From Clostridia bacterium (GTDB lineage Bacteria > Bacillota > Clostridia > UBA1381 > UMGS1253), in NCBI GenBank assembly GCA_045636325.1, contig JAZTXH010000016.1, forward strand, positions 82,956-146,955: a stretch of 64,000 bases of DNA, given 5' to 3'. The position numbers and the translations under genes are program-made. Positions 48,728 to 61,147 of the stretch are shown in pieces. Every line of letters starts with the position of its first letter. The first letter of the stretch is position 1. The notes beneath the pieces were generated by a model. That model did no database searches. It saw nothing but the letters and a program-made list of their open reading frames with translations, and had not been told where the DNA came from.

Positions 48728-50107
48728 ATGGTTAAATCAAAAGCAGCATTTGTAGTATATGGTGTTCATAAGGACGGACTTTGTGACCCGGACGGAAATC
48801 TTTTTATCGATGAAGGTCTTATTCTAAATTCTAAAGAAGCATTAAAAAACCAAGGTGTTGAGCTTGTGACACCTGAGCTTATTATAGCAACTAAACAAGA
48901 AGCGAAAGAAATTATTCTTCCTCTTGCAAAGGATGACAGTATTGATACTTTAGTTCTGTTTTCAGGAACATGGGTATGGGCAGCACATATGATAGCTGCA
49001 GTACGCGAATTTGCCAAAACAGGCAAAGGAATTGTTATATGGACTCACGACGGTTCACAGGGATGGCGTCCGGTTGGCGGCCTTGTGCTTAGTGCGGCAC
49101 TTAATGAAGTTGGAATAAAACACAAATTTGTATATGGTGGCGCAGATGATATTACTACAGTAAAAAGAGTTGCTAATTACTGTAAAGCATCTGCACTTAA
49201 AAAGAGTATGGAAATGACAACGCTTCGTTCATTTGGCGGACGCGGTATGGGTCAGACTTGCGGAGCTGCAGACCCATCACAGTGGATGCGTATGTTCGGA
49301 ATTGATATCGATTCACGTGATACATACGAGCTTGTTGAAGCTGCAAAAAATATTCCTCAGGAAGAGGTAGATAAAATCTGTGATTACATAGATGCAAACT
49401 TTAAATCCAAGGTAGATCGTAATGACGGAAATTATCGTTCTATACGCTTGTATCTTGCTCTTAAAGCACTTAAAGAAAAAGACGGATTTGATTATTATAC
49501 AATTCAGTCTTTCCCCGGCATGGGCGATTACTATGCGGCAACTTGTTTTGCACAAAGTATGATGCTTAACGATGGGGTGCCAACCTCTACTCTATCTGAT
49601 TTTAACACCTGCTTAACTTCAATTATGATTATGGGGCTTAGCAAAGAGCCTATCTATTACGGAGACCTTCAGCATGCAGATAAGAAGGCGGGAGAAATAA
49701 AAATTATCGGAGACGGCGCTATACCTCCATGTCTTGCAAATGAAGATGGTGTTTATCTTGCCGGCCACGGAATTCCTACAGAGGGAGAAGCAGGAGGCCT
49801 TTCAATAGATCTCGTATGTAAGAGTGGAAAAGGTGTTATTGCACGCTTAAGCCGTATTAATGGTAAGTTTAAAATTGTTGTTGCTAGATGTGAAGTTTTC
49901 CAGCCTGCAAAAGAAGAACTTGAAAAGCGTCGCCATGAATGCGGTATTCCTTTCTGGCCTCATGCTTTTGTTAAAGTTGAAGGTGATGTTGGTCAAATTA
50001 TAGAAAATTGGAATAACGAATACGGATGTCTTGGTTACGGCGAAGACCTTTATGACCAGATTGTTGATTTTGGCGAGATTATGGGTATTGAAGTTGTTGC
50101 ATTTTAA
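48728..50107 (+). CDS. L-fucose/L-arabinose isomerase-family protein (short form, 459 aa)
   Basis: The call rests on size, overall pattern, and the isomerase-kinase-aldolase context. The substrate is unknown. Confidence 0.6.
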   Translation: MVKSKAAFVVYGVHKDGLCDPDGNLFIDEGLILNSKEALKNQGVELVTPELIIATKQEAKEIILPLAKDDSIDTLVLFSGTWVWAAHMIAAVREFAKTGKGIVIWTHDGSQGWRPVGGLVLSAALNEVGIKHKFVYGGADDITTVKRVANYCKASALKKSMEMTTLRSFGGRGMGQTCGAADPSQWMRMFGIDIDSRDTYELVEAAKNIPQEEVDKICDYIDANFKSKVDRNDGNYRSIRLYLALKALKEKDGFDYYTIQSFPGMGDYYAATCFAQSMMLNDGVPTSTLSDFNTCLTSIMIMGLSKEPIYYGDLQHADKKAGEIKIIGDGAIPPCLANEDGVYLAGHGIPTEGEAGGLSIDLVCKSGKGVIARLSRINGKFKIVVARCEVFQPAKEELEKRRHECGIPFWPHAFVKVEGDVGQIIENWNNEYGCLGYGEDLYDQIVDFGEIMGIEVVAF

Positions 50108-50125
50108 AAGAAGGGAGCTTAGGCT

Positions 50126-51631
50126 ATGCTTATAGGCGGGCTTGATGTAGGAACAACTGGAACAAAGCTTACAGTATATGATACATGTGGCTGTTTTGTA
50201 GAAAATGAATATGTAGAATATGATGTGTCAAGAAAAAATGGCGAAGACGAAATTGATGTGGATGTAATTTTTGCCGCTGTTTGCGATGTTATATCAAAAA
50301 CAGTAAAAAAACATCCTGATCTCGCGGCAATAGGGGTTACAACCTTTGGCGAAACCTTTACAGTTCTTGATGAAAATAACAAGCCTTTATTTCCGGCTAT
50401 GCTTTATACTGATCCAAGAGGAGAAGAAGAAAGCCTGTTGCTTTGCAATTCTATAGGTATTAAAAATCTAAGAAGCATAACCGGTGTTAACCCTCATCAA
50501 ATGTATTCAATTCCTAAAATGATGTGGCTTAAGAATAAAAATCCCGAAGTGTTTGCAAAAGCAAAAAGAATACTTCTTATGGGCGATTATATAGTGTATA
50601 TGCTTACAGGGAAAGCCCAGATAGATTATTCGCTTGCAGCAAGAACTATGGCATTTGATATAGTTGAAAAGAAATGGAGCTCCCAGATTCTTAACTGTGC
50701 CGGCATAGATGAAAGTTTGTTATCCGTACCGGTTCCTACAGGCACACTTGCCGGAACTATATTAAATGACTTGGCAAAAAAGCTTGGGACCTCTGAAAAT
50801 CTTAAGATTGTTACCGGATGTCATGACCAAATAGCCGCGGCTGTCGGAGCTGGAGTTTTTGAATCAGGACAAGCTGTTGACGGAACAGGAACAGTTGAAT
50901 GCGTTACGCCTGTTTTTGACGGTATTCCTGATAATGATGGCATATATGATGGTGGGTATTCTGTAGTTCCGTATGTTTTTGAAAACAAATATGTTTGCTA
51001 TGCCCTGTCATATGCCGGCGGTGCAACTTTGAAATGGTATAGAGATTGTTTTGCAAAATACGAAAAGGAGCTTGCTTGTGAAACAGGCGAAAATGTGTAT
51101 GCATTGCTTGATAAACAGGTATCATCAGCTCCTACGGATTTACTTGTGCTTCCTCACTTTGCCGGAGCGGCGACACCATACATGGATGTTAATGCAAAAG
51201 GTGCAATTATAGGTCTTACTTTTGAACATACAAGCGCAGATATTTATAAGGCAATAATGGAAGGCGCAACTTATGAAATTATGATGAACACGGATCATCT
51301 TAGCAATTTTGGTATTAAAATTGATGAGTTATATGCAACAGGCGGTGGAGCATCGTCTCCGATATGGTTGCAGATTAAAGCGGATATCTTAAACAGACCT
51401 ATAACAACACTTGAATCCCGTGAGGTAGGTGCCTGTGGAATATGTATGCTTACAGCAGTCGCAGTAGGTGCTATAAATAACTTAGCTGAAGCAAAGAAAT
51501 TGTTTGTAAAACAAAATAAAACGTATTATCCGCACGCTGAAAATTCAGCGAAATATAATAAAAACTTTGAAGCATATAAAATGATTTATGATGCAGTACG
51601 CCCTGTTATATCTAAGATTATGGAGGAATAA
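50126..51631 (+). CDS. FGGY-family carbohydrate kinase
   Basis: It contains IGGLDVGTTGTK, GCHDQIAAAVGAG and ATGGGASSPIWLQI. Confidence 0.85.
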   Translation: MLIGGLDVGTTGTKLTVYDTCGCFVENEYVEYDVSRKNGEDEIDVDVIFAAVCDVISKTVKKHPDLAAIGVTTFGETFTVLDENNKPLFPAMLYTDPRGEEESLLLCNSIGIKNLRSITGVNPHQMYSIPKMMWLKNKNPEVFAKAKRILLMGDYIVYMLTGKAQIDYSLAARTMAFDIVEKKWSSQILNCAGIDESLLSVPVPTGTLAGTILNDLAKKLGTSENLKIVTGCHDQIAAAVGAGVFESGQAVDGTGTVECVTPVFDGIPDNDGIYDGGYSVVPYVFENKYVCYALSYAGGATLKWYRDCFAKYEKELACETGENVYALLDKQVSSAPTDLLVLPHFAGAATPYMDVNAKGAIIGLTFEHTSADIYKAIMEGATYEIMMNTDHLSNFGIKIDELYATGGGASSPIWLQIKADILNRPITTLESREVGACGICMLTAVAVGAINNLAEAKKLFVKQNKTYYPHAENSAKYNKNFEAYKMIYDAVRPVISKIMEE

Positions 51632-51634
51632 ACA

Positions 51635-52480
51635 ATGCTTGTAACATTAAAAGAAATTTTAAAAATTGCCAACGAACGAAAGTGCGCAATTGGCTCATTT
51701 AACACACCAAATATGGCAACTATTAAAGCTGTTATTGGCGGGGCAGAGGAAATGAATGAACCTGTAATAATAATGCATGCACAGGTGCACGAAGAAATGG
51801 GTGTTTGCAAGATGAGTGAGATTGCGCCTGTTATGCTTAATATGGCAGATAAAGCAAAGGTACCGGTATGTGTGCATCTTGACCACGGCACAGACCTTGG
51901 ATATGTTAAAAAAGCAATTGAATCAGGGTTTACCTCTGTAATGTATGATGGTTCAGAACTTCAAACATTTATGAATTATGTAAATACTTCTGTTGCCGTA
52001 AAACTTGCAGAAAAAACGGGTGCATCCGTAGAGGCAGAAATTGGTTCTATGGGCAAACGTGAAGGCGGCGGAGGAGAGGGAACAAGTATTTATACTGACC
52101 CTGATGAAGCAAAAGATTTTGCAGAAAAAACAGGTATAGATGCACTTGCGTGTGCATTTGGAACTGCACACGGTATGTATTTAAAAAAACCGAAGCTTGA
52201 TTTTGAAAGATTGGAAACAATAAAATCAAAGGTTCAAATTCCTCTTGTAATGCATGGCGGCTCAGGCGTTAGCCCTGAGGATTATACAAGAGCCATAAAG
52301 TGTGGAATACGTAAAATAAATTACTATACATATATGGCAAATGCAGGAGGTCGTGCGGTAGAAAAGCTGTTTAGAAAGACCTATTATCATGATATAGAGT
52401 TAGCTGCTATTGAAGCTATGAAAGATGATGTTAAAACAGCAATAAATGTATTTTCAGGGCAGAATAGACCTGGATTGTAA
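51635..52480 (+). CDS. class II (FbaA/GatY-type) ketose-phosphate aldolase
   Basis: It contains AIGSFN, VHLDHG, FGTAHG and MHGGSG. Confidence 0.85.
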   Translation: MLVTLKEILKIANERKCAIGSFNTPNMATIKAVIGGAEEMNEPVIIMHAQVHEEMGVCKMSEIAPVMLNMADKAKVPVCVHLDHGTDLGYVKKAIESGFTSVMYDGSELQTFMNYVNTSVAVKLAEKTGASVEAEIGSMGKREGGGGEGTSIYTDPDEAKDFAEKTGIDALACAFGTAHGMYLKKPKLDFERLETIKSKVQIPLVMHGGSGVSPEDYTRAIKCGIRKINYYTYMANAGGRAVEKLFRKTYYHDIELAAIEAMKDDVKTAINVFSGQNRPGL

Positions 52481-52490
52481 ATAAAAGTTT

Positions 52491-52529
52491 AAAATGACAA
52501 TATTCAATAATTGATTATTGTCATTTTTT
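52491..52529 (+). terminator. terminator of the sugar operon
   Basis: aaaatgacaata pairs with tattgtcatttt, followed by a T-run. Confidence 0.75.
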
Positions 52530-52546
52530 ATTGGTTGTGTTAGAAT
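52518..52546 (+). promoter_or_regulatory. promoter at the island edge, overlapped by an 11-bp inverted repeat
   Basis: TTGTCA at 52518-52523, a 17-nt spacer, and TGtTAGAAT ending at 52546. The palindrome gaatagattta (52543-52553) / taaatctattc (52561-52571) spans the -10 and +1 positions. Confidence 0.45.
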
Positions 52547-52572
52547 AGATTTAACAAGGTTAAATCTATTCA

Positions 52573-52732
52573 GTGAATTGCCTTCGGCATGAATTGAAAT
52601 CTATGATTCATGAATTGAGTCTTACGGCTCATGAATTGCACCTATTGGTGCATTAAGGCAATTCACTTCATGGAGCAATAGCGAGAATTCATGGCGGAAC
52701 GCCAATTAATGACAAGGTCGTTGTCAATTCAT
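52573..52732. repeat. array of eight RTGAATTG octamers, four forward then four inverted, each spacer holding a mini-hairpin
   Basis: Forward copies start at 52573, 52589, 52610 and 52631. Inverted copies start at 52659, 52685, 52703 and 52725. Spacing is 16-28 nt. Spacer hairpins are gcc-ttc-ggc, tgcacc-tatt-ggtgca, ggcg-gaa-cgcc and tgacaa-ggtcg-ttgtca. Confidence 0.8.
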
Positions 52733-52945
52733 TATGATTTTTAATCTTGAACACTATTCATTAGGGACCAAAGGCGAAACCTTAGTATTTATGCGGGTTT
52801 GCGGAGTTGCGGTTCACTTTTGTTTGCTATAAAATCAGCAAATAACAACTCGAATTTCGAAAGGTGGTAGGTATTTATCATAAATATTCGCTGTAAGCGA
52901 TGAGAACTTTAGTTCTTATAAAAATTAAAAACAAGTATGTTTTTT

Positions 52946-52982
52946 TGGCAGACTATAGAAAACTATAGTCTGCCATTTTTTG
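52946..52982 (+). terminator. strong intrinsic terminator 40 nt upstream of the first island ORF
   Basis: tggcagactatag pairs with ctatagtctgcca (13 bp, 4-nt loop), followed by T6. Confidence 0.8.
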
Positions 52983-53023
52983 TATCAGTTATTAAAATTT
53001 TGAAAAATTAGGAGGATTAAAAA

Positions 53024-53689
53024 ATGGTTGAATATTTTGTAACAAAAGGAAAATTGGTAGTAAGAAACGGTGAGCCACTTGTGATGGCGGATGTAGAAAC
53101 AAAAGCACTTTCACAGCCAGAGTTCATTTTATGGACAAGTCTGCATTGGAATGTATTAAATCGGGAATCGCTCAAAACAGAGTTTGACAGAAGAATGAGA
53201 AAATACAATCTAAACTTAGATGTTTCGTTTGAGCAGACACTTTCAAGACTTAAAACCAGAGGGCTTGTGGCATCAAAGTCAGATTATCTTGCAGTTGATG
53301 CGCTGTACAATCTGGTAAAGGATTTGTATGTGGTTCCCCTTGGAACAGTCAATGTATTTAAAAAGGCAATGATGTTTGGAGCTATGCTTATCAATGGAGT
53401 TCCCTTTGATAAATGCAGAGAGGCTATGAATGATTTCAATCTAAAGCGCCTTGAAAAACAAATTGTTGGTTTTTTAAAAAGACTTAAAGTCTCAGGGGCA
53501 GAGCTTATCCGCATCAACGATAAAGATTTATGGAATATAAAGTCTGAAGAAGATATTGTTCCGCTTGCGTACGATGAGCACGAAGATATGAATTCTCTGG
53601 GGAACAGTACAAGATTTTCAAAGGACAAAAACAAAGTCCTTGAAGCAATCGTGAATCTGTACTTAAAGAAACAAATTGTATTTGAATAA
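53024..53689 (+). CDS. hypothetical protein (221 aa)
   Basis: A GGAGGA SD is present. I recognise no family. Confidence 0.55.
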   Translation: MVEYFVTKGKLVVRNGEPLVMADVETKALSQPEFILWTSLHWNVLNRESLKTEFDRRMRKYNLNLDVSFEQTLSRLKTRGLVASKSDYLAVDALYNLVKDLYVVPLGTVNVFKKAMMFGAMLINGVPFDKCREAMNDFNLKRLEKQIVGFLKRLKVSGAELIRINDKDLWNIKSEEDIVPLAYDEHEDMNSLGNSTRFSKDKNKVLEAIVNLYLKKQIVFE

Positions 53690-53708
53690 TAGAAAGGTTT
53701 GGTGAATT

Positions 53709-54359
53709 ATGAAAAGGGCAGTAAGTATTTTATTAATGGTTGTAATGATGACAATGTGCATGAGCGTATCAGCTCAAAGCAATGTAAAAGTAACGCTCGA
53801 CGGAAATGAGATTTCTTTTCCTGATGCAAAACCCTTTATTGATCAGCGGGATAGAGTTTTAGTACCAATCAGATTTGTATCAGAGGCACTCGGTGCTCTG
53901 GTAGATTGGGAAAACAAATCAAGAACTGCAGTTATTAAACAAGATGACGATGAAATCCGTTATACAGTTTATCAGCCAATGGCATACTTAAACGGCGAAA
54001 TGATGGTTATGGATACATACGGAATTTTGAAAGACCAGAGAACTATGGTTCCTATAAGATTTATTTCTGAACTTTTGGGCTGTGATGTTGCCTGGGATGA
54101 AAATAACTCAACAGTTATTATTACATCTCCAAAGGATGCAGTTGAGTTCCCTGAACCTCAGATTTCTGTAAATTATCCAAAGAGTATTTCAGACAAAAGA
54201 CTTCTTTGGATTAATATTGACAATTACAGAGATTTTGAGCGCAGCGGTAATTATGAATTTAAAGTTGAGTTTATAAATCCTGTGCAGTTCAATACATACG
54301 AACAGGATGAGGGAGCAATCAACGGTTGGCAAAAGTATTCAAGATGCAATTTTGTATAA
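53709..54359 (+). CDS. secreted protein with a copper-amine-oxidase-N-terminal-like (stalk) domain
   Basis: It has a signal peptide. Repeats are VLVPIRFVSEALGALVDWE and TMVPIRFISELLGCDVAWD. Its 3' end abuts a truncated gene fragment. Confidence 0.65.
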   Translation: MKRAVSILLMVVMMTMCMSVSAQSNVKVTLDGNEISFPDAKPFIDQRDRVLVPIRFVSEALGALVDWENKSRTAVIKQDDDEIRYTVYQPMAYLNGEMMVMDTYGILKDQRTMVPIRFISELLGCDVAWDENNSTVIITSPKDAVEFPEPQISVNYPKSISDKRLLWINIDNYRDFERSGNYEFKVEFINPVQFNTYEQDEGAINGWQKYSRCNFV

Positions 54360-54369
54360 CTGTGAATCT

Positions 54370-54630
54370 GTTGCTATTGACGAAAAGGTTATGATGTGTA
54401 TTGAATTTGTATATAGTGAAGATTACGACAGAATATTAAGAGGTGACCACGACAATAAGGAAGTTAAACAGGTAATTGACGCAATTTCAAGTTTTGTTGT
54501 GACAAATGACAGTGATTATTATTTAAGCATTTGTCAAATTTCCTCTGTAGGTAAGTATAGTCATACAAAGGTTTATGTAATGCCTGAAAAAGACTTTGGA
54601 GAGTTCTTTTTGAAACATCAAAACAAGTAA
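54370..54630 (+). pseudogene. 5'-truncated copy of the RusA-like gene (homolog of 56302..56973)
   Basis: EKVMMCIEFVYSEDYDRILRGDHDNKEVKQVIDAISSFVV... aligns with the C-terminal ~85 aa of the 223-aa paralog. No N-terminal part or start codon is present. Confidence 0.6.
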
Positions 54631-54790
54631 ATGAATATCCAAAAACCGTATCACAAAACGGCGTTTTAAAGACAAATTTTTGCGACGTGGAGAAAAGGCC
54701 GTAAAAACGGGATTTCCGAGGCCTTTTCTCCAAATAAAAAAGACCGTAAATAAGGAACTTGGATTAAAATAAGCAGGTGAAAGTAAAACT

Positions 54791-55927
54791 ATGATAAGAG
54801 AGCAGACAATAGAATATAAGATAGTAAGTTTAATAGGATTAGCAGGAGAAGTACAGACAGAAGAGTTATATAAATTGAAATATGGAAAAGAGTATATAAG
54901 GAAAACGATAAGTAAGTTAATAACAAATAAATATATTAAAGTATATAAATTCAATAATAAAAAATATTTAAGATTAACGGTATCGTGTAAAAGATATTTA
55001 AAAGAATACCATTCAGATAGATTTGAAAATATGTTTGATGGAGCGAGCAGGACCAATAAGGTGAGAAATGATGAACACAGAGGGATAAGGAATCACAGAC
55101 TCGCTGAAATATTAATTCTCTTAGACCTTGCAGACATAAAAATTTTTGCGGATGAAAAAAGCCTGATGGAAAAAACTCTTGGATTTGAAAGAAGAAACGG
55201 CACAGACTTAACAGACTATTGTGCAGAGAAAAACACAGCAGAGTTTTATACGGCAGATGAATTAAAAGCAGCAGGATTATTTAAGAATGCAAGAACGTCA
55301 AGAGCAATGGGAGTTATCTTCTCTTATCCAGAGGTTTATATAATATATAATTTTGGCGATGAGGTTTTGAAAATGGAGAATAAAACTGAGGAATCATTTT
55401 TCTCCAAAGCAAAATTGGCATTTTATTTTGAACTGCAGGAAAAACACTATTATGAATTTCCAAGAATTATTTATGTAGGAAACAGTATGGATCTTGCAAA
55501 TAAGATTATGAACGCAAGAAAAGGAGCAGTAAAAAAGATATTTAACTCATGGACGGACTATCCGCATGTTCTCTTCATTGATGCATCAAATCACGCTCCT
55601 GAGCAACTTAAATATATTATAAACGCTACTCGTAGAGATGAAATAAAGGATGTTATATATAATAATTTTGGCGGAGATAACGAAGCTTTATATGTTGCCA
55701 ATACAATGGATCACAAAACTGAAATTATGGATTGCACCAATTTCAATCTCGTAGCTATTAATCTTTATAAAAGAGAAAGAGAAAGTTATGATGAAAAAAC
55801 TAAAAAAATAATAGTTGTCAGCATTGATTATCAATTTCCTTACATGAAAAAATATTTCAGAAAAAAAAGAGATGTTGAACACTATCAGATTATTTCAGAA
55901 GATATATATGGAACGGGGGACACCTGA
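54791..55927 (+). CDS. hypothetical 378-aa protein, copy A (N-terminal winged-helix-like region)
   Basis: It is a paralog of 57146..58282, with the same length and a shared QTIEYK..VS.IGLAGE.QTEE.YKLKYGKEYIRKTISKLIT N-terminus. Confidence 0.6.
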   Translation: MIREQTIEYKIVSLIGLAGEVQTEELYKLKYGKEYIRKTISKLITNKYIKVYKFNNKKYLRLTVSCKRYLKEYHSDRFENMFDGASRTNKVRNDEHRGIRNHRLAEILILLDLADIKIFADEKSLMEKTLGFERRNGTDLTDYCAEKNTAEFYTADELKAAGLFKNARTSRAMGVIFSYPEVYIIYNFGDEVLKMENKTEESFFSKAKLAFYFELQEKHYYEFPRIIYVGNSMDLANKIMNARKGAVKKIFNSWTDYPHVLFIDASNHAPEQLKYIINATRRDEIKDVIYNNFGGDNEALYVANTMDHKTEIMDCTNFNLVAINLYKRERESYDEKTKKIIVVSIDYQFPYMKKYFRKKRDVEHYQIISEDIYGTGDT

Positions 55928-55934
55928 CAACAAA

Positions 55935-56290
55935 ATATACAATTAAAAAGAAAAGAATTTTGTGTAGATACCCAAAATAGTATTTTGACAAGTCCCGATA
56001 TAAGCCTTAAAGCAAAAGGTATGCTTGCTCTGAGGCTTTCACTTCTGGGTAACTGAAAATTTAAGAATAAAACTTACAGGAGAAATTAATGAGTATCTTT
56101 TCGTAGAAGAATTAAAAATGCCGTATGAAATAGAAAAATACATTGAATAAAGAGAATCCAGAGACGGATTTTTTAGTTCTTGTAAAACCAGAGCAAGAAA
56201 TTCCAGTTCTGGATAATCCTTTACTGGAGTTTCCAATGTAGGATATCCCAGAAGAGGAAAATGCTGACACATATAAATAAATAGTAACGG
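55935..56290 (+). pseudogene. decayed copy of the HTH/replication-initiator-like gene (homolog of 58279..59235)
   Basis: The fragments SPDISLKAKGMLAL and IPVLDNP..E.P...IPEEE match the intact copy. They are interrupted by stops and frameshifts and by a large internal deletion. Confidence 0.55.
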
Positions 56291-56301
56291 AGGAGTAAAA
56301 A

Positions 56302-56973
56302 ATGATCTACAAAAATATTGACACAAGCAGTGTAAAAGCGGAATTGGATTTTGATCAAATTCAAAGCGATTTGGCAAAGTTCAAAAGCCACACGTCGATG
56401 CCGCAAGATGATGTAATAACACTTATGAATTATATCGACAAATTTGAGCGATTGATAGCAGACAAAGATTATAATGAGCTTGAATACAGTGCGGAGTGTT
56501 TTATGTGTAATCTTCGCGACATTCTGGCAAATGTAAAACAAGAGCCGAGAAAAAGAGCACTTACTAAATGTGCAGATAGAATGGGCATAACAGTACAGAA
56601 AACAAATGGCGTTCTGGAAATAACATTACCTATGATACTGCCGAAGAAAACAAAAACAAAAGCAGACTATTTATTCGATCCGATATTTCACGCGATGGAA
56701 GAATTTTCGAAAAACGAACCTCTTTTTATAAAAGAAAAAGCAATGATGTGCATCGAATTTATCTACGATAAAAATAAGAAAAATATTCCGCGTGGTGACC
56801 ACGACAATAAGGAAGTCAAGCAGGTAATTGATGCAATTGCCTCCTTTGTTGTACGGGATGACAGTGATGACTATTTAAGTCTTTGCCAGATTTCGTCTGA
56901 AGGTGATTATAATCACACAAAGGTTTATGTTATGCCCGAAAAAGATTTTGCAGAATTCTTTTTGAATCATTAA
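56302..56973 (+). CDS. RusA-like (Holliday-junction-resolvase fold) domain protein with a ~95-aa N-terminal extension
   Basis: The C-terminal half carries RGDHDNKEVKQVIDAI...DDSD. This matches the RusA D-x-D-N-x-x-K-x-x-x-D-A ... DD pattern. Confidence 0.5.
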   Translation: MIYKNIDTSSVKAELDFDQIQSDLAKFKSHTSMPQDDVITLMNYIDKFERLIADKDYNELEYSAECFMCNLRDILANVKQEPRKRALTKCADRMGITVQKTNGVLEITLPMILPKKTKTKADYLFDPIFHAMEEFSKNEPLFIKEKAMMCIEFIYDKNKKNIPRGDHDNKEVKQVIDAIASFVVRDDSDDYLSLCQISSEGDYNHTKVYVMPEKDFAEFFLNH

Positions 56974-57145
56974 AATAGTTAGAAAATGCCGCAAAAACCG
57001 TATCACAAAACGGCGTTTTTAATCGAAAATTTTGTGACATGGCGAAAAGCCCATAAAACCGGGATTTTCGAGGCTTTTTCTCTGATAAAAAAAGACCGTA
57101 AATAAGAAGATTGGATAAAAATAAAGCAAAGGAGTGAAAACAGAT

Positions 57146-58282
57146 ATGATTAAAAAGCAGACAATAGAATATAAACTGGTAAGCATAATAGGATTAGCAG
57201 GAGAGATACAGACGGAAGAAATATATAAATTAAAATACGGAAAAGAGTATATAAGAAAAACAATAAGCAAGTTAATAACAAAGAAATGTATTAAAGTATA
57301 TAAGTTTGATAATAAGAAATATTTAAGATTAACAGTAGCTTGTAAAAAATACTTATTGGAAAATTATCCTGAAAGATTTGAGTCTATATTAAAAGGTGCA
57401 GCCAGAGCTAACAAAATACGAAACGAGGAACACAGACGAACAAGGTATCACAGACTTGGCGAGCTTTTAATTCTTTTAGACCTTGCAGACATAAAAATAT
57501 TCGCTGATGAAAAAACTCTTTGGAAAAAGACTCATGGGTTTCAAGAAGCAGACGGAACAGACTTCACAGACTATTCACCGGATAAAAAGACTGCTGAGTT
57601 TTATACAGCAACGGAATTAAAAAGCTTTGGATTTTTTGGAAATGCAAGAACATCAAGAGCGATGGGAATCATATACTCTCATCCGGATGTTTTTGTAATA
57701 TACTACTTTGTCAATGAATTTCCCAAATTGGAATACAAAACTGAAAGTAGTTTTTGTCACAGTGCGGGTTCCGGCATTCATTCTAATTTGAGGCACGATT
57801 ATCATGCTCGTGCAAAAATAATTTTCGTTGGAGACAGTATGAAAATATTTAACGATATTTTACGTGATAAAAGAAAGTCCACAGAGAAAATTCTTAGGAT
57901 GAATGATGATAGTGACCCTGTTATGTTCCTTGATAAATCTCATCTTGGTTCAAGACAACTTATGTATTTTATCAACGAAAGAGCCAGGAATGAAATGAAA
58001 ATGTTTTCTTGTGATTATTTTGGAGCTGAAACTACAGGATGGCATATAGGTTACATTCCCAATACGGGCAAGATTGTCAGAGATTGCACTATATGCAACC
58101 CGAGGGTTATTTCATATATTAAATACATCAGCAAAGGAGAAGCTGTTGAGTATAAAGCGGTAAATGTAATGTGTTTTGATTTTCAATATGAATGCATAAA
58201 GAAATATATTGGCGATTCTGATAACGTTACATATTACACATACGATTCAGAAAAGGTACTAGGAACGGAGGAAACGAGATGA
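57146..58282 (+). CDS. hypothetical 378-aa protein, copy B
   Basis: It is a paralog of 54791..55927. The start is set at the ATG after AAGGAG, by homology. Confidence 0.6.
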   Translation: MIKKQTIEYKLVSIIGLAGEIQTEEIYKLKYGKEYIRKTISKLITKKCIKVYKFDNKKYLRLTVACKKYLLENYPERFESILKGAARANKIRNEEHRRTRYHRLGELLILLDLADIKIFADEKTLWKKTHGFQEADGTDFTDYSPDKKTAEFYTATELKSFGFFGNARTSRAMGIIYSHPDVFVIYYFVNEFPKLEYKTESSFCHSAGSGIHSNLRHDYHARAKIIFVGDSMKIFNDILRDKRKSTEKILRMNDDSDPVMFLDKSHLGSRQLMYFINERARNEMKMFSCDYFGAETTGWHIGYIPNTGKIVRDCTICNPRVISYIKYISKGEAVEYKAVNVMCFDFQYECIKKYIGDSDNVTYYTYDSEKVLGTEETR

Positions 58283-59235
58283 AAAAACATATAACTAAAA
58301 AAGAAAAAGGATTTGTGCAGGTAGCTAATAATATACTGTCGGATCCTGATATAAGCTTAAAAGCAAAAGCTGTACTTACTATTATGTTATCGCTCCCGGA
58401 GAACTGGGATTTCAGTATAGAAGGAATTGCAGGCAAATGCAAAGAAAGCAAAGATTGTATTGCTAAAGCAATAAATGAACTTATAGATGCAGGTTACGTA
58501 AAAAGGACAAAAACACGCGGAGATGATGGCAGAATAACAAAATGGGATTATGAAGTTTTTGAAGAACCGTATATATTAAATCAACAAAATGATAATAATG
58601 AAAAGTCGTGTGAGGAAGAGAATAACACGGTTCTTTCGCCTGCAGAAAGCGTTTCTCAAGATAATTTTGACGCAGAAGAAACAGAAGATGAAACTCCAGT
58701 TCTTGAAAACCCAGTTCTGGATAATCCTTCTATGGAAATTCCATCAGAGGATATTCCAGATGAGGAAGGTGAGGATACATATAATACTTTAATAAATAAA
58801 AAAGAAAATAATAATATTTTATTTAATAATATCCAATCCAATCCTATCCCATCTAAGAATAAAATAAGTTTTAATATGTCTGAGATAGAATTAACAAGAT
58901 TTACTGTTGAAGAAAATATTGATTACGATATTCTTCTTGAAAATTTTCCTAACCGGAAAGCTATGATTGACGAAATCGTAAATCTTATGGTTGAAGTACT
59001 CTGTTCCAAAAGAGAAACCATAACCATCGCAAGCGACACTCATCCGATAGAGCAGGTCAAGAAACGCTTTAAATCCATAGATAGCGGGCATATAGAGTAC
59101 ATATTGGAGTGCCTGGATAAAAACACAACCGACATCCGTAACATAAAGCAATATCTGCTATCAGTTATTTTTAACGCTCCCCAGACGATGGATAACTATT
59201 ATACCGCCGCTGTAAAACATGATTTATACGGATAG
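58279..59235 (+). CDS. HTH-domain protein, replication-initiator/DnaD-like N-terminus with an acidic Pro-rich linker
   Basis: It contains GFVQVANNILSDPDISLKAKAVLTIMLSLPENWDFS (winged-helix type) and ENPVLDNPSMEIPSEDIPDEE. Its ATG overlaps the upstream stop (ATGA). Confidence 0.55.
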   Translation: MKKHITKKEKGFVQVANNILSDPDISLKAKAVLTIMLSLPENWDFSIEGIAGKCKESKDCIAKAINELIDAGYVKRTKTRGDDGRITKWDYEVFEEPYILNQQNDNNEKSCEEENNTVLSPAESVSQDNFDAEETEDETPVLENPVLDNPSMEIPSEDIPDEEGEDTYNTLINKKENNNILFNNIQSNPIPSKNKISFNMSEIELTRFTVEENIDYDILLENFPNRKAMIDEIVNLMVEVLCSKRETITIASDTHPIEQVKKRFKSIDSGHIEYILECLDKNTTDIRNIKQYLLSVIFNAPQTMDNYYTAAVKHDLYG

Positions 59236-59359: not shown

Positions 59360-61147
59360 TCACGCGAGGGATTTCAAATATTCTTCAACGTTAAGATATT
59401 TGATTCCGTTAGCATTGGTAGTTTCACCGCGATAGATGACATATTTCCCTTTGATATCGCCAAACCGGAAGGCGGTATCTTTGCATTTTTGTTCATCAAT
59501 AAGATGCTGGTATTGCTTTGAAACAATCTCTTTACTGTATTTGATTTCATATATTTCGCAAGAAAGAGATTTTTCATCTGCGATGACCATATCAAATTCG
59601 CCTGTGGTGAATTGAAGCTTAAATACTTGCTTTTGAGGATATGCCATCTTTGTTTCCAAGAGAACAATTTCTTCCAGCATACGGCCTTTAACCTCGCTTA
59701 ATATTCTCTCAAGGATGTATGCTCTTTCGCTAGCTGAGAAATTACTGAATTTTTCATCCTGAAGAATAGAATTAACAAGTTCTGTAGCCTGTGAATATCT
59801 CATACCGGGCTGTGTAATTGTTGTTTTTTTATTGCCGGGGCTTACAACCGGTAAATATTCCTCGTCAATTTCCATTGTCAGATCAAGCAGAGAAAGGTAC
59901 TCCTTGATTTCTAATGCACAAGTTTCATCGATGTCTACTGATTGGTCTTCAATATTCAAAATTTTGAGAGTTTGCATAAGACGCTCTTCAACCGCATCTC
60001 TATCGATATTGCTTAATAAATCAACGCTGTTTTGCTTGTCTTTTAACAAATTGTTAGCGGAGATTGATAAGTCGGTAGACTTGAAGGTTTTTGTGAGTAC
60101 GTCCACAGTAAAACGATGGTTAATATCTTCTACTACACGGTTAATAGCGTTTGTAAGCTCACCTTTTTCGTATAAGGCAATCAGGTGTCTGAAATGAGTA
60201 CCGTGTTGATAATATTTAAGTGAGTGTTGAATATTTCTTGCTATTGCAGTGTCGATATATTCATCAGTTTTCTTGGGATCAGCAAATGGTGATTCTATGT
60301 TGTAATTTATACCACTAAGACTCATTGTGCCACCAAAGCGAATATATTCATCAATACCCTTAATTCCAAGAACCTTTTCAAATTCACGATAAGGAATAAA
60401 GGTTGTGTGAAGAGTGATACATCTGTCATATAATTCTTCGCTTTCAGTGAACAAAAAACCGAGTGAGTCTGTGCCGGAAAGAACTATTTTCATTCCGCAG
60501 GAAGCGTATATGTCAGAGAATAAAGCGGCACCTTCGATAAAGTCTTCCATCAGAGTTACTTCATCAATGAACACATATTTATATCCTTGCGTTTCAAGAT
60601 ATTTAAGGTCTTGGTTTAATTGTGAAAGATTATCCTGAGTTTTCACCTGTATAAATGCAGACTGTTGTAATTCGCTTTCTGTCATATTTGCGATGATCTG
60701 ACGAATAAGAGTTGTTTTACCGGTACGGCGCAGACCATAAAGGACAAAAACCTTATCCATATGGCCACCATAAATATATTCGTGGAGTTTACTATAGCAT
60801 TCTCTCTTTTTATAACTTTTAACCGATGAGGCATATTTTTTAAGTTGCTCACCAATACGAATATATGTGTTAAATTCGTGAGAGATTGAGCTTTTTGGAG
60901 TTGATGGAACTAATCTTTTTAATTCCTTTAACTCTTTTTCTAATTCTCTGCGTTTTTTAATTTGTGCTTTCAGTAATTCAACATCATCGAAGGCAACATA
61001 TGTTTCTTTAGATTTTCCATCTATGTTTACACGATGGTAATAATAAACTTTATCTTTAATAGTTTTTTTAGATACACTTCCCGGTGGGAGAGCAGCAATT
61101 TCCCGTTCGAGGTCAATAATACGCTCCATAACATCATTATTAGCCAT
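59360..61147 (-). CDS. AAA-type ATPase with a C-terminal PD-(D/E)xK-like (DUF4143-like) region, 595 aa
   Basis: Walker A is GLRRTGKTT and Walker B is YVFIDEV. The C-terminus contains GEFDMVIADE...CEIYEIKYS. Confidence 0.7.
   Translation of the reverse strand: MANNDVMERIIDLEREIAALPPGSVSKKTIKDKVYYYHRVNIDGKSKETYVAFDDVELLKAQIKKRRELEKELKELKRLVPSTPKSSISHEFNTYIRIGEQLKKYASSVKSYKKRECYSKLHEYIYGGHMDKVFVLYGLRRTGKTTLIRQIIANMTESELQQSAFIQVKTQDNLSQLNQDLKYLETQGYKYVFIDEVTLMEDFIEGAALFSDIYASCGMKIVLSGTDSLGFLFTESEELYDRCITLHTTFIPYREFEKVLGIKGIDEYIRFGGTMSLSGINYNIESPFADPKKTDEYIDTAIARNIQHSLKYYQHGTHFRHLIALYEKGELTNAINRVVEDINHRFTVDVLTKTFKSTDLSISANNLLKDKQNSVDLLSNIDRDAVEERLMQTLKILNIEDQSVDIDETCALEIKEYLSLLDLTMEIDEEYLPVVSPGNKKTTITQPGMRYSQATELVNSILQDEKFSNFSASERAYILERILSEVKGRMLEEIVLLETKMAYPQKQVFKLQFTTGEFDMVIADEKSLSCEIYEIKYSKEIVSKQYQHLIDEQKCKDTAFRFGDIKGKYVIYRGETTNANGIKYLNVEEYLKSLA

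Follow-up and report, generated by a model that had tools for sequence, protein, structure and literature searches.

A dispersed array of heptad linkers and hairpins in gut Clostridia and its possible kinship with the intervening sequences of rRNA genes

We analysed a stretch of 64,000 nt from an uncultured Clostridia bacterium (contig JAZTXH010000016.1, positions 82,956-146,955, forward strand), which we call the window and to which all window coordinates refer. Between an aldolase gene that stops at 52480 and an open reading frame (ORF) of 221 amino acids (aa) whose ATG lies at 53024, it holds one copy of an array in which short conserved linkers alternate with small hairpins. We conclude that this array is a dispersed, selfish-type repeat element found across gut Clostridia and their phages, and that the copy in the window is an orphan member tied to the PF05635 protein family; this conclusion is well supported. 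We further propose, with a probability of roughly 0.55, that the conserved core (52570-52734), together with a leading hairpin, hp0 (from 52543), and a promoter (from 52518), is a gene-less copy of a dispersed selfish element of the type of the rRNA intervening sequences (IVS), lying between genes and not in an rRNA gene. The proposal stands on the architecture of the array, the family to which it belongs, the dispersal of that family, its link with PF05635 genes and the predicted pairing of its two arms. An earlier reading made from the letters alone (the sequence-only reading below) had taken nearly the whole gap for one unit of about 450 nt, and had seen in it a structured non-coding RNA (ncRNA), a leader of the downstream island genes, or an origin-like DNA element of the island. 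For the window alone the outcome is modest, as this 'novel 430-nt RNA or origin' reduces to an orphan 165-bp repeat, a spacer and a terminator. The features of the locus are the following.

52491-52532, + strand: AT-rich hairpin and T run directly 3' of the aldolase stop; inverted repeat with 18-nt arms, 94% complementary
52518-52546, + strand: sigma-A-type (sigma-70) promoter TTGTCA-17-TGtTAGAAT, with 10 of 12 consensus positions and a TG extension, reading into the array
52543-52571, + strand: hp0, the leading hairpin, with 13-bp arms, 100% complementary; immediately 5' of the first linker and overlapping the -10 box
52570-52734, + strand: conserved core of 165 bp, member of the 'c+' array family and sole stretch with homologs elsewhere
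52573-52651, + strand: forward arm, with linkers GTGAATTG (52573) and ATGAATTG (52589, 52610, 52631) interleaved with hp1-hp4
52580-52588, 52596-52609, 52617-52630 and 52638-52651, + strand: forward-arm hairpins hp1, hp2, hp3 and hp4, 9-14 nt each
52651-52666, + strand: centre CATTAAGGCAATTCAC (family consensus CAT..GCAATTCAATTCAT), which pairs with the first forward linker, F1, and the start of hp1
52659-52732, + strand: inverted arm, with linkers CAATTCAC (52659), GAATTCAT (52685), CAATTAAT (52703) and CAATTCAT (52725)
52672-52685, 52693-52703 and 52711-52725, + strand: inverted-arm hairpins hpR1, hpR2 and hpR3, between the inverted linkers
52735-52945, + strand: small hairpins and a GCGG x3 run over 211 nt, outside the repeat family
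52946-52981, + strand: intrinsic terminator, 42 nt from the ATG at 53024; 13-pair stem with 6 G-C pairs, loop of 4 nt, tail TTTTTTGT

Much of what the sequence-only reading had described in the gap was recovered. No ORF of 60 aa or more is present in 52481-53016, where the longest ones reach 30-32 aa, and both the extended -10 promoter at one end and the 13-bp-stem terminator before the first island gene are there; the palindrome overlapping the promoter has 13-bp arms. Every spacer is a mini-hairpin. The count of four forward and four inverted copies of the octamer RTGAATTG needs correction: all four forward copies are exact, and among the inverted ones only two are (52659-52666 and 52725-52732), the other two carrying one mismatch each (GAATTCAT, 52685-52692, and CAATTAAT, 52703-52710). 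The octamer occurs 9 times in the window against about 10 expected, with 6 exact copies within 160 nt, a clustering far in excess of chance; Chi or DNA-uptake sites were considered and dropped, because it is not over-represented outside the array. The helix proposed around F1 was also found, as the arms 52565-52584 and 52655-52674 are 85% complementary and a 13-bp helix between F1 and the centre appears in both the minimum-free-energy and the centroid folds. Folds far better than those of shuffled sequences were obtained for a length of 438 nt (z = -7.7) and for the core alone (z = -4.9); the opposite strand folds well too (z = -6.1), as palindromes would lead one to expect.

To place the array, loci were collected by two pattern scans, one of viral contigs (two linkers 10-14 nt apart; 16 loci) and one of a single genome per species (three linkers; at least 120 loci), and these 136 loci are the comparison set for the homology statements. 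A blastn comparison of 51000-55000 with the family loci aligned 52570-52734 only, with identities of 88% for L114 (E = 2e-52), 86% for the phage contig L016, 82% for L111 and 81% for L038. The single unit of about 450 nt is therefore a composite, since the 211 nt downstream of the core and the terminator have no homologs among the loci compared. In particular, 52735-52945 gave no homolog among the 136 loci and no Rfam match, and no remnant of a PF05635 gene, which was also sought in 52733-52990. The run of three GCGG with an 8-nt period (52793-52812), already pointed out by the sequence-only reading, is real, unique in the window and expected 0 times in shuffles; no homolog of it was found among the loci compared. 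The terminator had no homolog among the 136 loci and is not conserved in the array family, whose members have no consistent terminator after the array; it serves possibly as the 3' end of a transcript from the 52518 promoter. As the earlier reading had supposed, no known RNA family was recognised: Rfam gave no match at E ≤ 1 in 50000-56000, and a scan of the 64 kb at gathering thresholds returned only a tRNA.

Members of the window's subfamily, named 'c+' and oriented by the centre GCAATTCAATTCAT, consist of hp0, four linker-plus-hairpin units, CAT.., the centre, and three to four inverted units. The window has this build, with four forward CATGAATTG linkers each followed by its hairpin, a centre of the form GCAATTCA(A/C)TTCAT, and the inverted linkers with their hairpins, and its core aligns over the full length with 20 other 'c+' members. 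In that alignment the linker columns are invariant and the centre columns invariant or nearly so, and the inverted arm aligns with a conserved module CAATTCATG-hp-(C/G)AAWTCATG-hp-CAATTCATG-hp-CAATTCAT. The sequence of hp0 differs among homologs, the hairpin itself being kept in place in at least 20 oriented members. Likewise, hp1-hp4 follow the same order in L114, L111, L038, L016, L005 and L008, where changes in one arm of a stem are compensated in the other, e.g. GCAC/GTGC to GTGC/GCAC.

The same division of labour between linkers and spacers holds for the family as a whole. Its conserved letters are the linkers (C)RTGAATT(G), of 7-8 nt, and their complement. Spacers form hairpins in 98 of 149 motif clusters; 246 of 338 spacers are distinct, and Watson-Crick pairs occupy 95% of their stem positions, against 30% after shuffling (maximum 34%). 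Both the family and the hairpins hp1-hp4 and hpR1-hpR3 of the window keep pairing in spacers of variable sequence. Such a design, where linkers are conserved and hairpins are free to vary, is unusual. Of the 98 arrays, 55 have the forward-then-inverted order of linkers, and 3 the opposite order.

Arrays of the same build with other linkers (TCGATAT, GCGATAT, AATGATG, GTGAAGT, GTGATAT, GTGAAAT) share contigs with these, and one phage contig carries five arrays of four linker types. At L114 (2470-2620), a TCGATAT-linker array follows the ATGAATTG array and is preceded by a second module made of TATAAT and hp0 (gatttcatc...gatgaaatc). Two orthologous arrays in related metagenome-assembled genomes (MAGs), L021 676-849 and L113 7762-7935, differ mainly in the hairpin loops (TTT/TTC, GACA/GTCA, TAT/CGT), the few remaining differences lying at the array end and in the downstream flank; in this pair, the loops look hypervariable. 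A run of N was seen inside the arrays of L195 (1995-2100). Arrays of this kind disrupt metagenome assemblies, and may pass for ncRNA genes or origins.

Among the matches listed in the one-genome-per-species scan, nearly all are MAGs of gut or rumen Clostridia (Oscillospiraceae, Acutalibacteraceae, Christensenellaceae, Eubacteriales). The family is very abundant in these bacteria, and it reaches their phages. Arrays are intergenic, in every gene geometry. Their neighbours are unrelated housekeeping genes (the rhamnose and glucuronate isomerases RhaA and UxaC, PEPCK, CysRS, adenylosuccinate synthetase), and on phage contigs they occupy the gaps between the terS, terL and portal genes. The L016 array lies after terL and is absent at the matching junction in phages with 52-61% TerL identity. 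Since the family is spread among such unrelated settings, an island-specific leader and an island origin or origin of transfer (oriT) are ruled out. At several loci hp0 overlaps the last codons and the stop of RumA/TrmA-type methyltransferase genes (L213, 640-700; upstream of the L040 and L072 arrays). At L185 (1275-1320), behind a peptidase M28 gene and with no methyltransferase at the locus, hp0 has the methyltransferase-tail sequence CATGTTGA.CTATCGTTTG; judging from these letters, it looks as if the L185 unit moved together with a piece of its former flank.

Four close homologs of the window array (L114, L111, L038, L022) have a TTGnnn-17-TATAAT promoter directly before hp0, at the same position as in the window, which makes five subfamily members in total. 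Because of this recurrence, transcription of the array is plausible. This much can be kept of the proposed structured ncRNA of about 430 nt, of which only 165 nt are conserved. The promoter as a family-wide feature was dropped, as discussed below.

When 110 ORFs next to arrays were scanned against Pfam, one family stood out unexpectedly, PF05635, which four of them matched. Its members are four-helix bundles, Avd-like and annotated as '23S rRNA intervening-sequence protein', a name that goes back to the intervening sequences of 23S rRNA genes. They have no characterised function, and resemble the accessory protein Avd of diversity-generating retroelements (PMC10053308); the Avd subunit is the family's only characterised relative. 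At the pattern-seeded loci, a PF05635 gene (117-131 aa) adjoins 5 of 98 arrays, the other approximately 95% being orphans, and orphan arrays are homologous to the gene-linked ones. Three of these loci (L040, L050, L072) show a full array, a ribosome-binding site and the gene in succession; at L068 the order is forward arm, gene, inverted arm, and at L075 inverted arm, gene, forward arm.

The reverse search, seeded with the protein, gave at least 7987 relatives at E ≤ 1e-10, the best 120 being 85-100% identical, and six from different genomic contexts were examined. In all six, 15-35 nt separate the start codon from the end of a full upstream array of the same orientation as the gene. Wherever a full c+ array precedes the gene (9 loci), the orientation given by the centre motif agrees with that of the gene. 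In three of the six protein-seeded loci, a second, partial array made of hp0, the forward arm and the centre lies downstream of the gene, so that a direct repeat of 100-200 bp surrounds the inverted arm and the gene; it could be a recombination or integration junction. The second copy stops after the first inverted linker or after the hairpin of that linker (L195 and L197, 1850-1990; L213, 1090-1290; L216, 1115-1330). More diverged homologs go with diverged repeats: GTGAAAT plus hairpins in a viral contig, ATGATAT plus hairpins, TGCAGAA, and contiguous GTGAATT in a Chitinispirillaceae MAG. A search of viral contigs found only one PF05635 relative.

The association extends well beyond Clostridia. 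All eight homologs taken from a plasmid collection are flanked by inverted tandem heptamers, for instance AATTCAA x4 with TTGAATT x4, or GTGATTA x15 with TAATCAC. They come from eight lineages, seven of them outside Clostridia (Nostoc, Euhalothece, Planktothrix, Bernardetia, Chondrinema, Treponema and Chlorohelix, besides Monoglobus), and span cyanobacteria, Bacteroidota, Spirochaetota and Chloroflexota. In Monoglobus (L218), Chondrinema (L224), Chlorohelix (L225) and Planktothrix (L223), the gene and its heptamer flanks are wedged within operons (hsdS|hsdR, resistance-nodulation-division adaptor|permease, helicase|DNA methylase); in Monoglobus, the copy lacks a gene annotation. A search of the examined loci with a hidden Markov model found no PF05635 gene without such repeats. 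Elsewhere, perfect tandem heptamer arrays are rare: the 1.35 Mb examined contain 15, most of them beside a PF05635 gene or selected by the search pattern itself. That the same gene is flanked by inverted heptamers in all these phyla, taken with the abundance and the build of the Clostridial arrays and their tie to PF05635, suggests a common origin of several puzzling repeat classes and points to a definite protein that can be tested.

The heptads beside PF05635 genes are mostly of the form N-T-G-A-N-N-N (ATGAATT, GTGAATT, TTGAATT, GTGAAAT, GTGATTA, GTGACCA, ATGAAGG), as noted at L041, L205, L219, L220, L222 and L225 and in the Clostridial arrays; the GACAGAT of Coxiella reads ATGACAG in another register. 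Such an NTGA heptad is a start-like codon overlapping a TGA stop, and because 7 is coprime with 3, an array shows a stop and a start in all three frames. Among the relatives listed, the 117-aa protein is annotated in many database copies with 140-179 aa, its ORF having been extended into the array. Arrays therefore inflate ORF calls.

By analogy with rRNA intervening sequences, the following course of events is proposed for the element. In the window its own promoter would drive transcription; at other loci it would be read as part of an operon. Its two arms would pair through the linkers, and the structured block might then be a substrate for double-strand-specific processing by RNase III, as in the rRNA case. 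The host transcript would thereby tolerate the insert, including within operons. Transcription, RNase III cleavage, the mode of spread and any role of the protein are what we infer from the analogy. As to the folds themselves, RNAalifold run on the family alignment pairs forward with inverted linkers, and predicted folds of gene-containing elements pair the arms around the ORF, with a 32-bp stem at L222 and z = -9.9 at L068.

Several observations weigh against the IVS-type reading. First, the window contains no PF05635 gene or remnant over its 64 kb. Second, half arrays, with one arm only, make up approximately 45% of all arrays, and these cannot form the long stem. Third, pairing between arms is without covariation support, because the linkers are invariant; where forward linkers choose between A and G, the choice is not mirrored in the inverted linkers, apart from a weak trend (Fisher p = 0.07). 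Moreover, paired linkers give helices of only 8-9 bp, broken by hairpin branches, a poor fit to the approximately 20 bp of classical RNase III substrates. Fourth, in the family as a whole promoters occur at only 12 of 142 array ends, compared to 2.7% of random positions; downstream terminators show no asymmetry (5 versus 5 of 23), and array orientation has no significant bias relative to the flanking genes. Fifth, comparison of flanks revealed no consistent target-site duplication and no empty site, so that the case for mobility is indirect; a 10-nt direct repeat does flank the Nostoc element L222. Finally, the forward-linker strand shows no excess of G.T pairs (11) over A.C pairs (21), and its loops (TTC, TGC, TAC, TGAC, TTAC) are the complements of GNA/GNNA loops. 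From these pairs and loops, the hairpins do not look selected on the sense RNA, which would leave room for a role in single-stranded DNA or for a function of the other strand; we regard this as suggestive, not decisive.

Extending the IVS-type reading, a wider and more tentative proposal is that PF05635 genes may make up, with the inverted heptad arrays on their flanks, a single ancient class of very small selfish elements, common to several phyla, in which the rRNA IVS would be the members noticed first. A ring of the protein would recognise heptads with the core N-Y-G-A-N-N-N in RNA or DNA that is single-stranded, and orphan arrays would be footprints or targets, including the hairpin-interrupted arrays of Clostridia and possibly the short tandemly repeated repetitive (STRR) sequences of cyanobacteria and the TAACTGA repeats. 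We would not bet on the whole of it; if true, it would supply both an origin for heptamer repeats that have gone without explanation for decades and a partner protein open to test.

An attractive alternative is that the array acts as a protein-binding RNA, where single-stranded heptad linkers, held side by side by the hairpins, would be repeated sites for a ring-shaped PF05635 protein, and where promoter-bearing orphans would be regulatory targets or sponges. Several facts speak for it. The PF05635 subfamily and the heptad sequence vary together, and the contiguous heptads of other phyla and the hairpin-separated heptads of Clostridia are equivalent only on a single-stranded nucleic acid. The likeness of PF05635 to Avd counts here as well. 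Avd is a nucleic-acid-binding pentamer. There are approximately 4-5 linkers per arm, and the entry of the closest solved homolog of the PF05635 protein, 2RLD, has five chains. A near-invariant motif, LRSGTSIGANI.EA, is common to PF05635 proteins, most heptads share a YGA core, and promoters are conserved in the window's subfamily. On the other hand, tandem arrays have 4-15 copies, with no fixed five, the window is without a PF05635 gene, and the order of heptads with respect to the gene varies, with L222 (Nostoc) and L075 opposite to L068 and L225; this variable order fits arm pairing better than strand-specific binding. We consider an RNA of this kind an unlikely explanation, although the best placed of the competitors.

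Improbable to a further degree is a function of the array as double-stranded DNA, with the inward-facing linkers as putative sites for a transposase or recombinase, like the ends of miniature inverted-repeat transposable elements (MITEs), or as operator- or centromere-like sites. The forward-then-inverted preference (55 versus 3) is what one expects of transposon ends, boundaries are discrete, and the arrays occur in all intergenic geometries, without preferring either orientation relative to the genes around them. Their stems are nearly perfect palindromes in which wobble pairs are not in excess, and at L082 and L205 the array is upstream of the transcription start, because a promoter separates it from the gene. 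The omega repressor of pSM19035 binds heptad arrays cooperatively on double-stranded DNA. However, the linkers are spaced by 14-25 bp, so that the sites are out of helical phase, and a duplex model has no role for spacers that are perfectly palindromic and free in sequence. No recurrent transposase or recombinase was found among array neighbours, and no target-site duplications were seen.

Still less credit can be given to single-stranded DNA, where the mini-hairpins of the CAATTCAT strand would be a signal for priming or second-strand synthesis, or a recognition signal for a HUH-type enzyme. On this strand the loops read GAA, GCA, GTA, GTCA and GTAA, closed by C-G. Such loops belong to exceptionally stable classes of DNA hairpins, e.g. 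d(GCGAAGC). The excess of A.C over G.T on the opposite strand also agrees with this idea, and model energies slightly favour the CAATTCAT strand, but by just 0.1-0.3 kcal/mol. Arrays adjoin housekeeping genes, and not solely rolling-circle or conjugative elements, and scans of their neighbours revealed no associated relaxase, Rep or Y1-transposase gene. The TAGCGA hexamer, which the sequence-only reading called at most a weak hint and which resembles the conserved CS-6 hexamer of ssoA origins, is not conserved, as homologs read GAAGCGAG, AACGCGAG or GGAGCGAG there. The third proposal of that reading, iterons, an origin, an oriT or a single-strand origin (sso) of the island, is not supported in that form, because the element is not island-specific, while its broader idea of a dispersed or mobile DNA-borne element came closest.

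We give almost no weight to the second proposal of that reading, a long leader which would regulate the island genes by conditional termination or antitermination, or to a type III toxin-antitoxin-like RNA array for the 221-aa gene: the succession of promoter, repeats, strong terminator and a gene 42 nt on is suited to both, but homologous arrays precede unrelated genes, occur in other geometries and sit between housekeeping and phage structural genes, the stretch from array to terminator is not conserved, the units are not identical tandem repeats, unlike ToxI-type antitoxins, and searches with the 221-aa protein found nothing in Pfam, PHROG or PADLOC and no relatives among viral contigs. Other ideas were dropped: pac or cos sites, because three arrays occur within 5 kb of one phage and arrays occur in chromosomes; a CRISPR-like array, because the spacers are palindromes; K-turn, C/D-box or tandem G.A self-pairing, which was inconsistent across linker types; and N4-type hairpin promoters, for which the host range is wrong.

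Around the array, the hairpin at 52491-52532 is probably the terminator of the aldolase operon and lies outside the repeat family; a terminator scan had missed it because it has fewer than three G-C pairs. Within 52491-52546, the -35 box of the array promoter sits in the descending arm of this hairpin, so that termination of the upstream operon and initiation into the array use the same bases. An empty site was sought through aldolase relatives in metagenomes, and gave no close orthologous locus, the best match having 70% identity and lying on a truncated contig. No exact match was found among database records for the aldolase, the 221-aa protein or the DapDH of the window; for the latter, the nearest named relatives are MAGs of Monoglobales, Oscillospiraceae and Acutalibacteraceae, with 77-80% identity. 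Further downstream, a two-gene module is duplicated in tandem (54307-58282) and its copies have diverged: the first consists of a DUF6100 fragment (54307-54630) and a 378-aa ORF (54791-55927), the second of a DUF6100 gene (56302-56973) and a 382-aa ORF (57134-58282). It is followed by an HTH_36 and DUF6017 gene (58279-59235), which matches phage replication-initiator families, and, on the - strand, by a 595-aa AAA_14 ATPase (59360-61147) matching the PADLOC candidate defence family PDC-S01 (E = 1e-14).

How does the array compare with known systems? As an iteron, oriT or sso of a plasmid or of an integrative and conjugative element, it found no counterpart, blastn giving no match in plasmid or phage collections. 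A ToxI-like type III toxin-antitoxin locus shares with the window the layout of promoter, short-period repeats, terminator and gene; in the window, however, the units are non-identical and the arms inverted, and the downstream gene is not conserved and bears no resemblance to ToxN, CptN or TenpN. With MITEs, the array has in common a length of about 165 bp, the lack of coding capacity, inverted ends, discrete boundaries, an intergenic and dispersed distribution, and a relation to longer, gene-carrying copies, but the flanks compared showed no consistent target-site duplication, its partner gene is no recognisable transposase, and one-armed copies are common.

Repetitive extragenic palindromic sequences (REPs) and the bacterial interspersed mosaic elements (BIMEs) that they form are extragenic and palindrome-rich, occur in mosaic clusters, are transcribed within operons and are mostly orphans, with a few copies flanking one particular gene. 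The array family shares these traits, transcription within operons being a putative one. In REPs, however, the conserved part is the palindrome, imperfect, 20-40 nt long and with a conserved 5' tetranucleotide, whereas in the arrays the linkers are conserved and the hairpins vary (246 distinct), and the array-associated gene encodes a four-helix bundle and not a Y1 (HUH) transposase. No REP-associated tyrosine or other Y1 transposase was found among the commonest families of the 110 neighbours, nor among 10 scanned singly.

Arrays of TAACTGA heptamers, of unknown function, are widespread and intergenic in Beggiatoaceae, Cyanobacteria and Bacteroidetes (PMC4679880), and that study makes no mention of a PF05635 protein. 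Like the arrays described here, STRR and TAACTGA repeats are intergenic arrays of 7-nt units, and TAACTGA-like and TTGAATT arrays flank PF05635 genes in Nostoc, Euhalothece, Planktothrix, Chondrinema and Bernardetia. Their heptamers are contiguous and mostly direct, whereas the heptads of the window are separated by hairpins of 8-17 nt and arranged in two inverted arms. Our literature search found no published link between STRR or heptamer repeats and PF05635, heptamers beside such an ORF being described only in the Coxiella IVS paper.

In Coxiella, RNase III cuts the 23S rRNA IVS at a terminal stem of 28 bp, and 2-3 tandem GACAGAT heptamers stand directly upstream of the S23p (PF05635) ORF (PMC4990558). 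IVSs occur sporadically, and horizontal transfer is assumed for them (bioRxiv 10.1101/2024.02.27.582315); they are regarded as selfish and horizontally spread, with short, ORF-less forms and a variable number of heptamers (PMC4990558; bioRxiv 10.1101/2024.02.27.582315). Rather than helix 25 or 45 of a 23S rRNA gene, of which no match was found in the window, the arrays occupy sites between protein-coding genes and in phage operons. In place of a plain stem, their arms are heptad linkers interrupted by variable hairpins, and many are one-armed; the window copy has its own promoter and no ORF. The element of the window thus resembles an IVS in parts, but is not a member of that class, because it does not lie in an rRNA gene. 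The likeness to the ORF-carrying IVSs of Coxiella and Leptospira concerns the complementary inverted linkers, predicted to pair in short, branched helices, and, in the long form, the same protein family embedded in the element with heptamers beside its ORF; absent from the window, this combination of PF05635 ORF and heptamers was found at the level of the family, in 6 of 6 protein-seeded loci and 8 of 8 loci of the plasmid collection.

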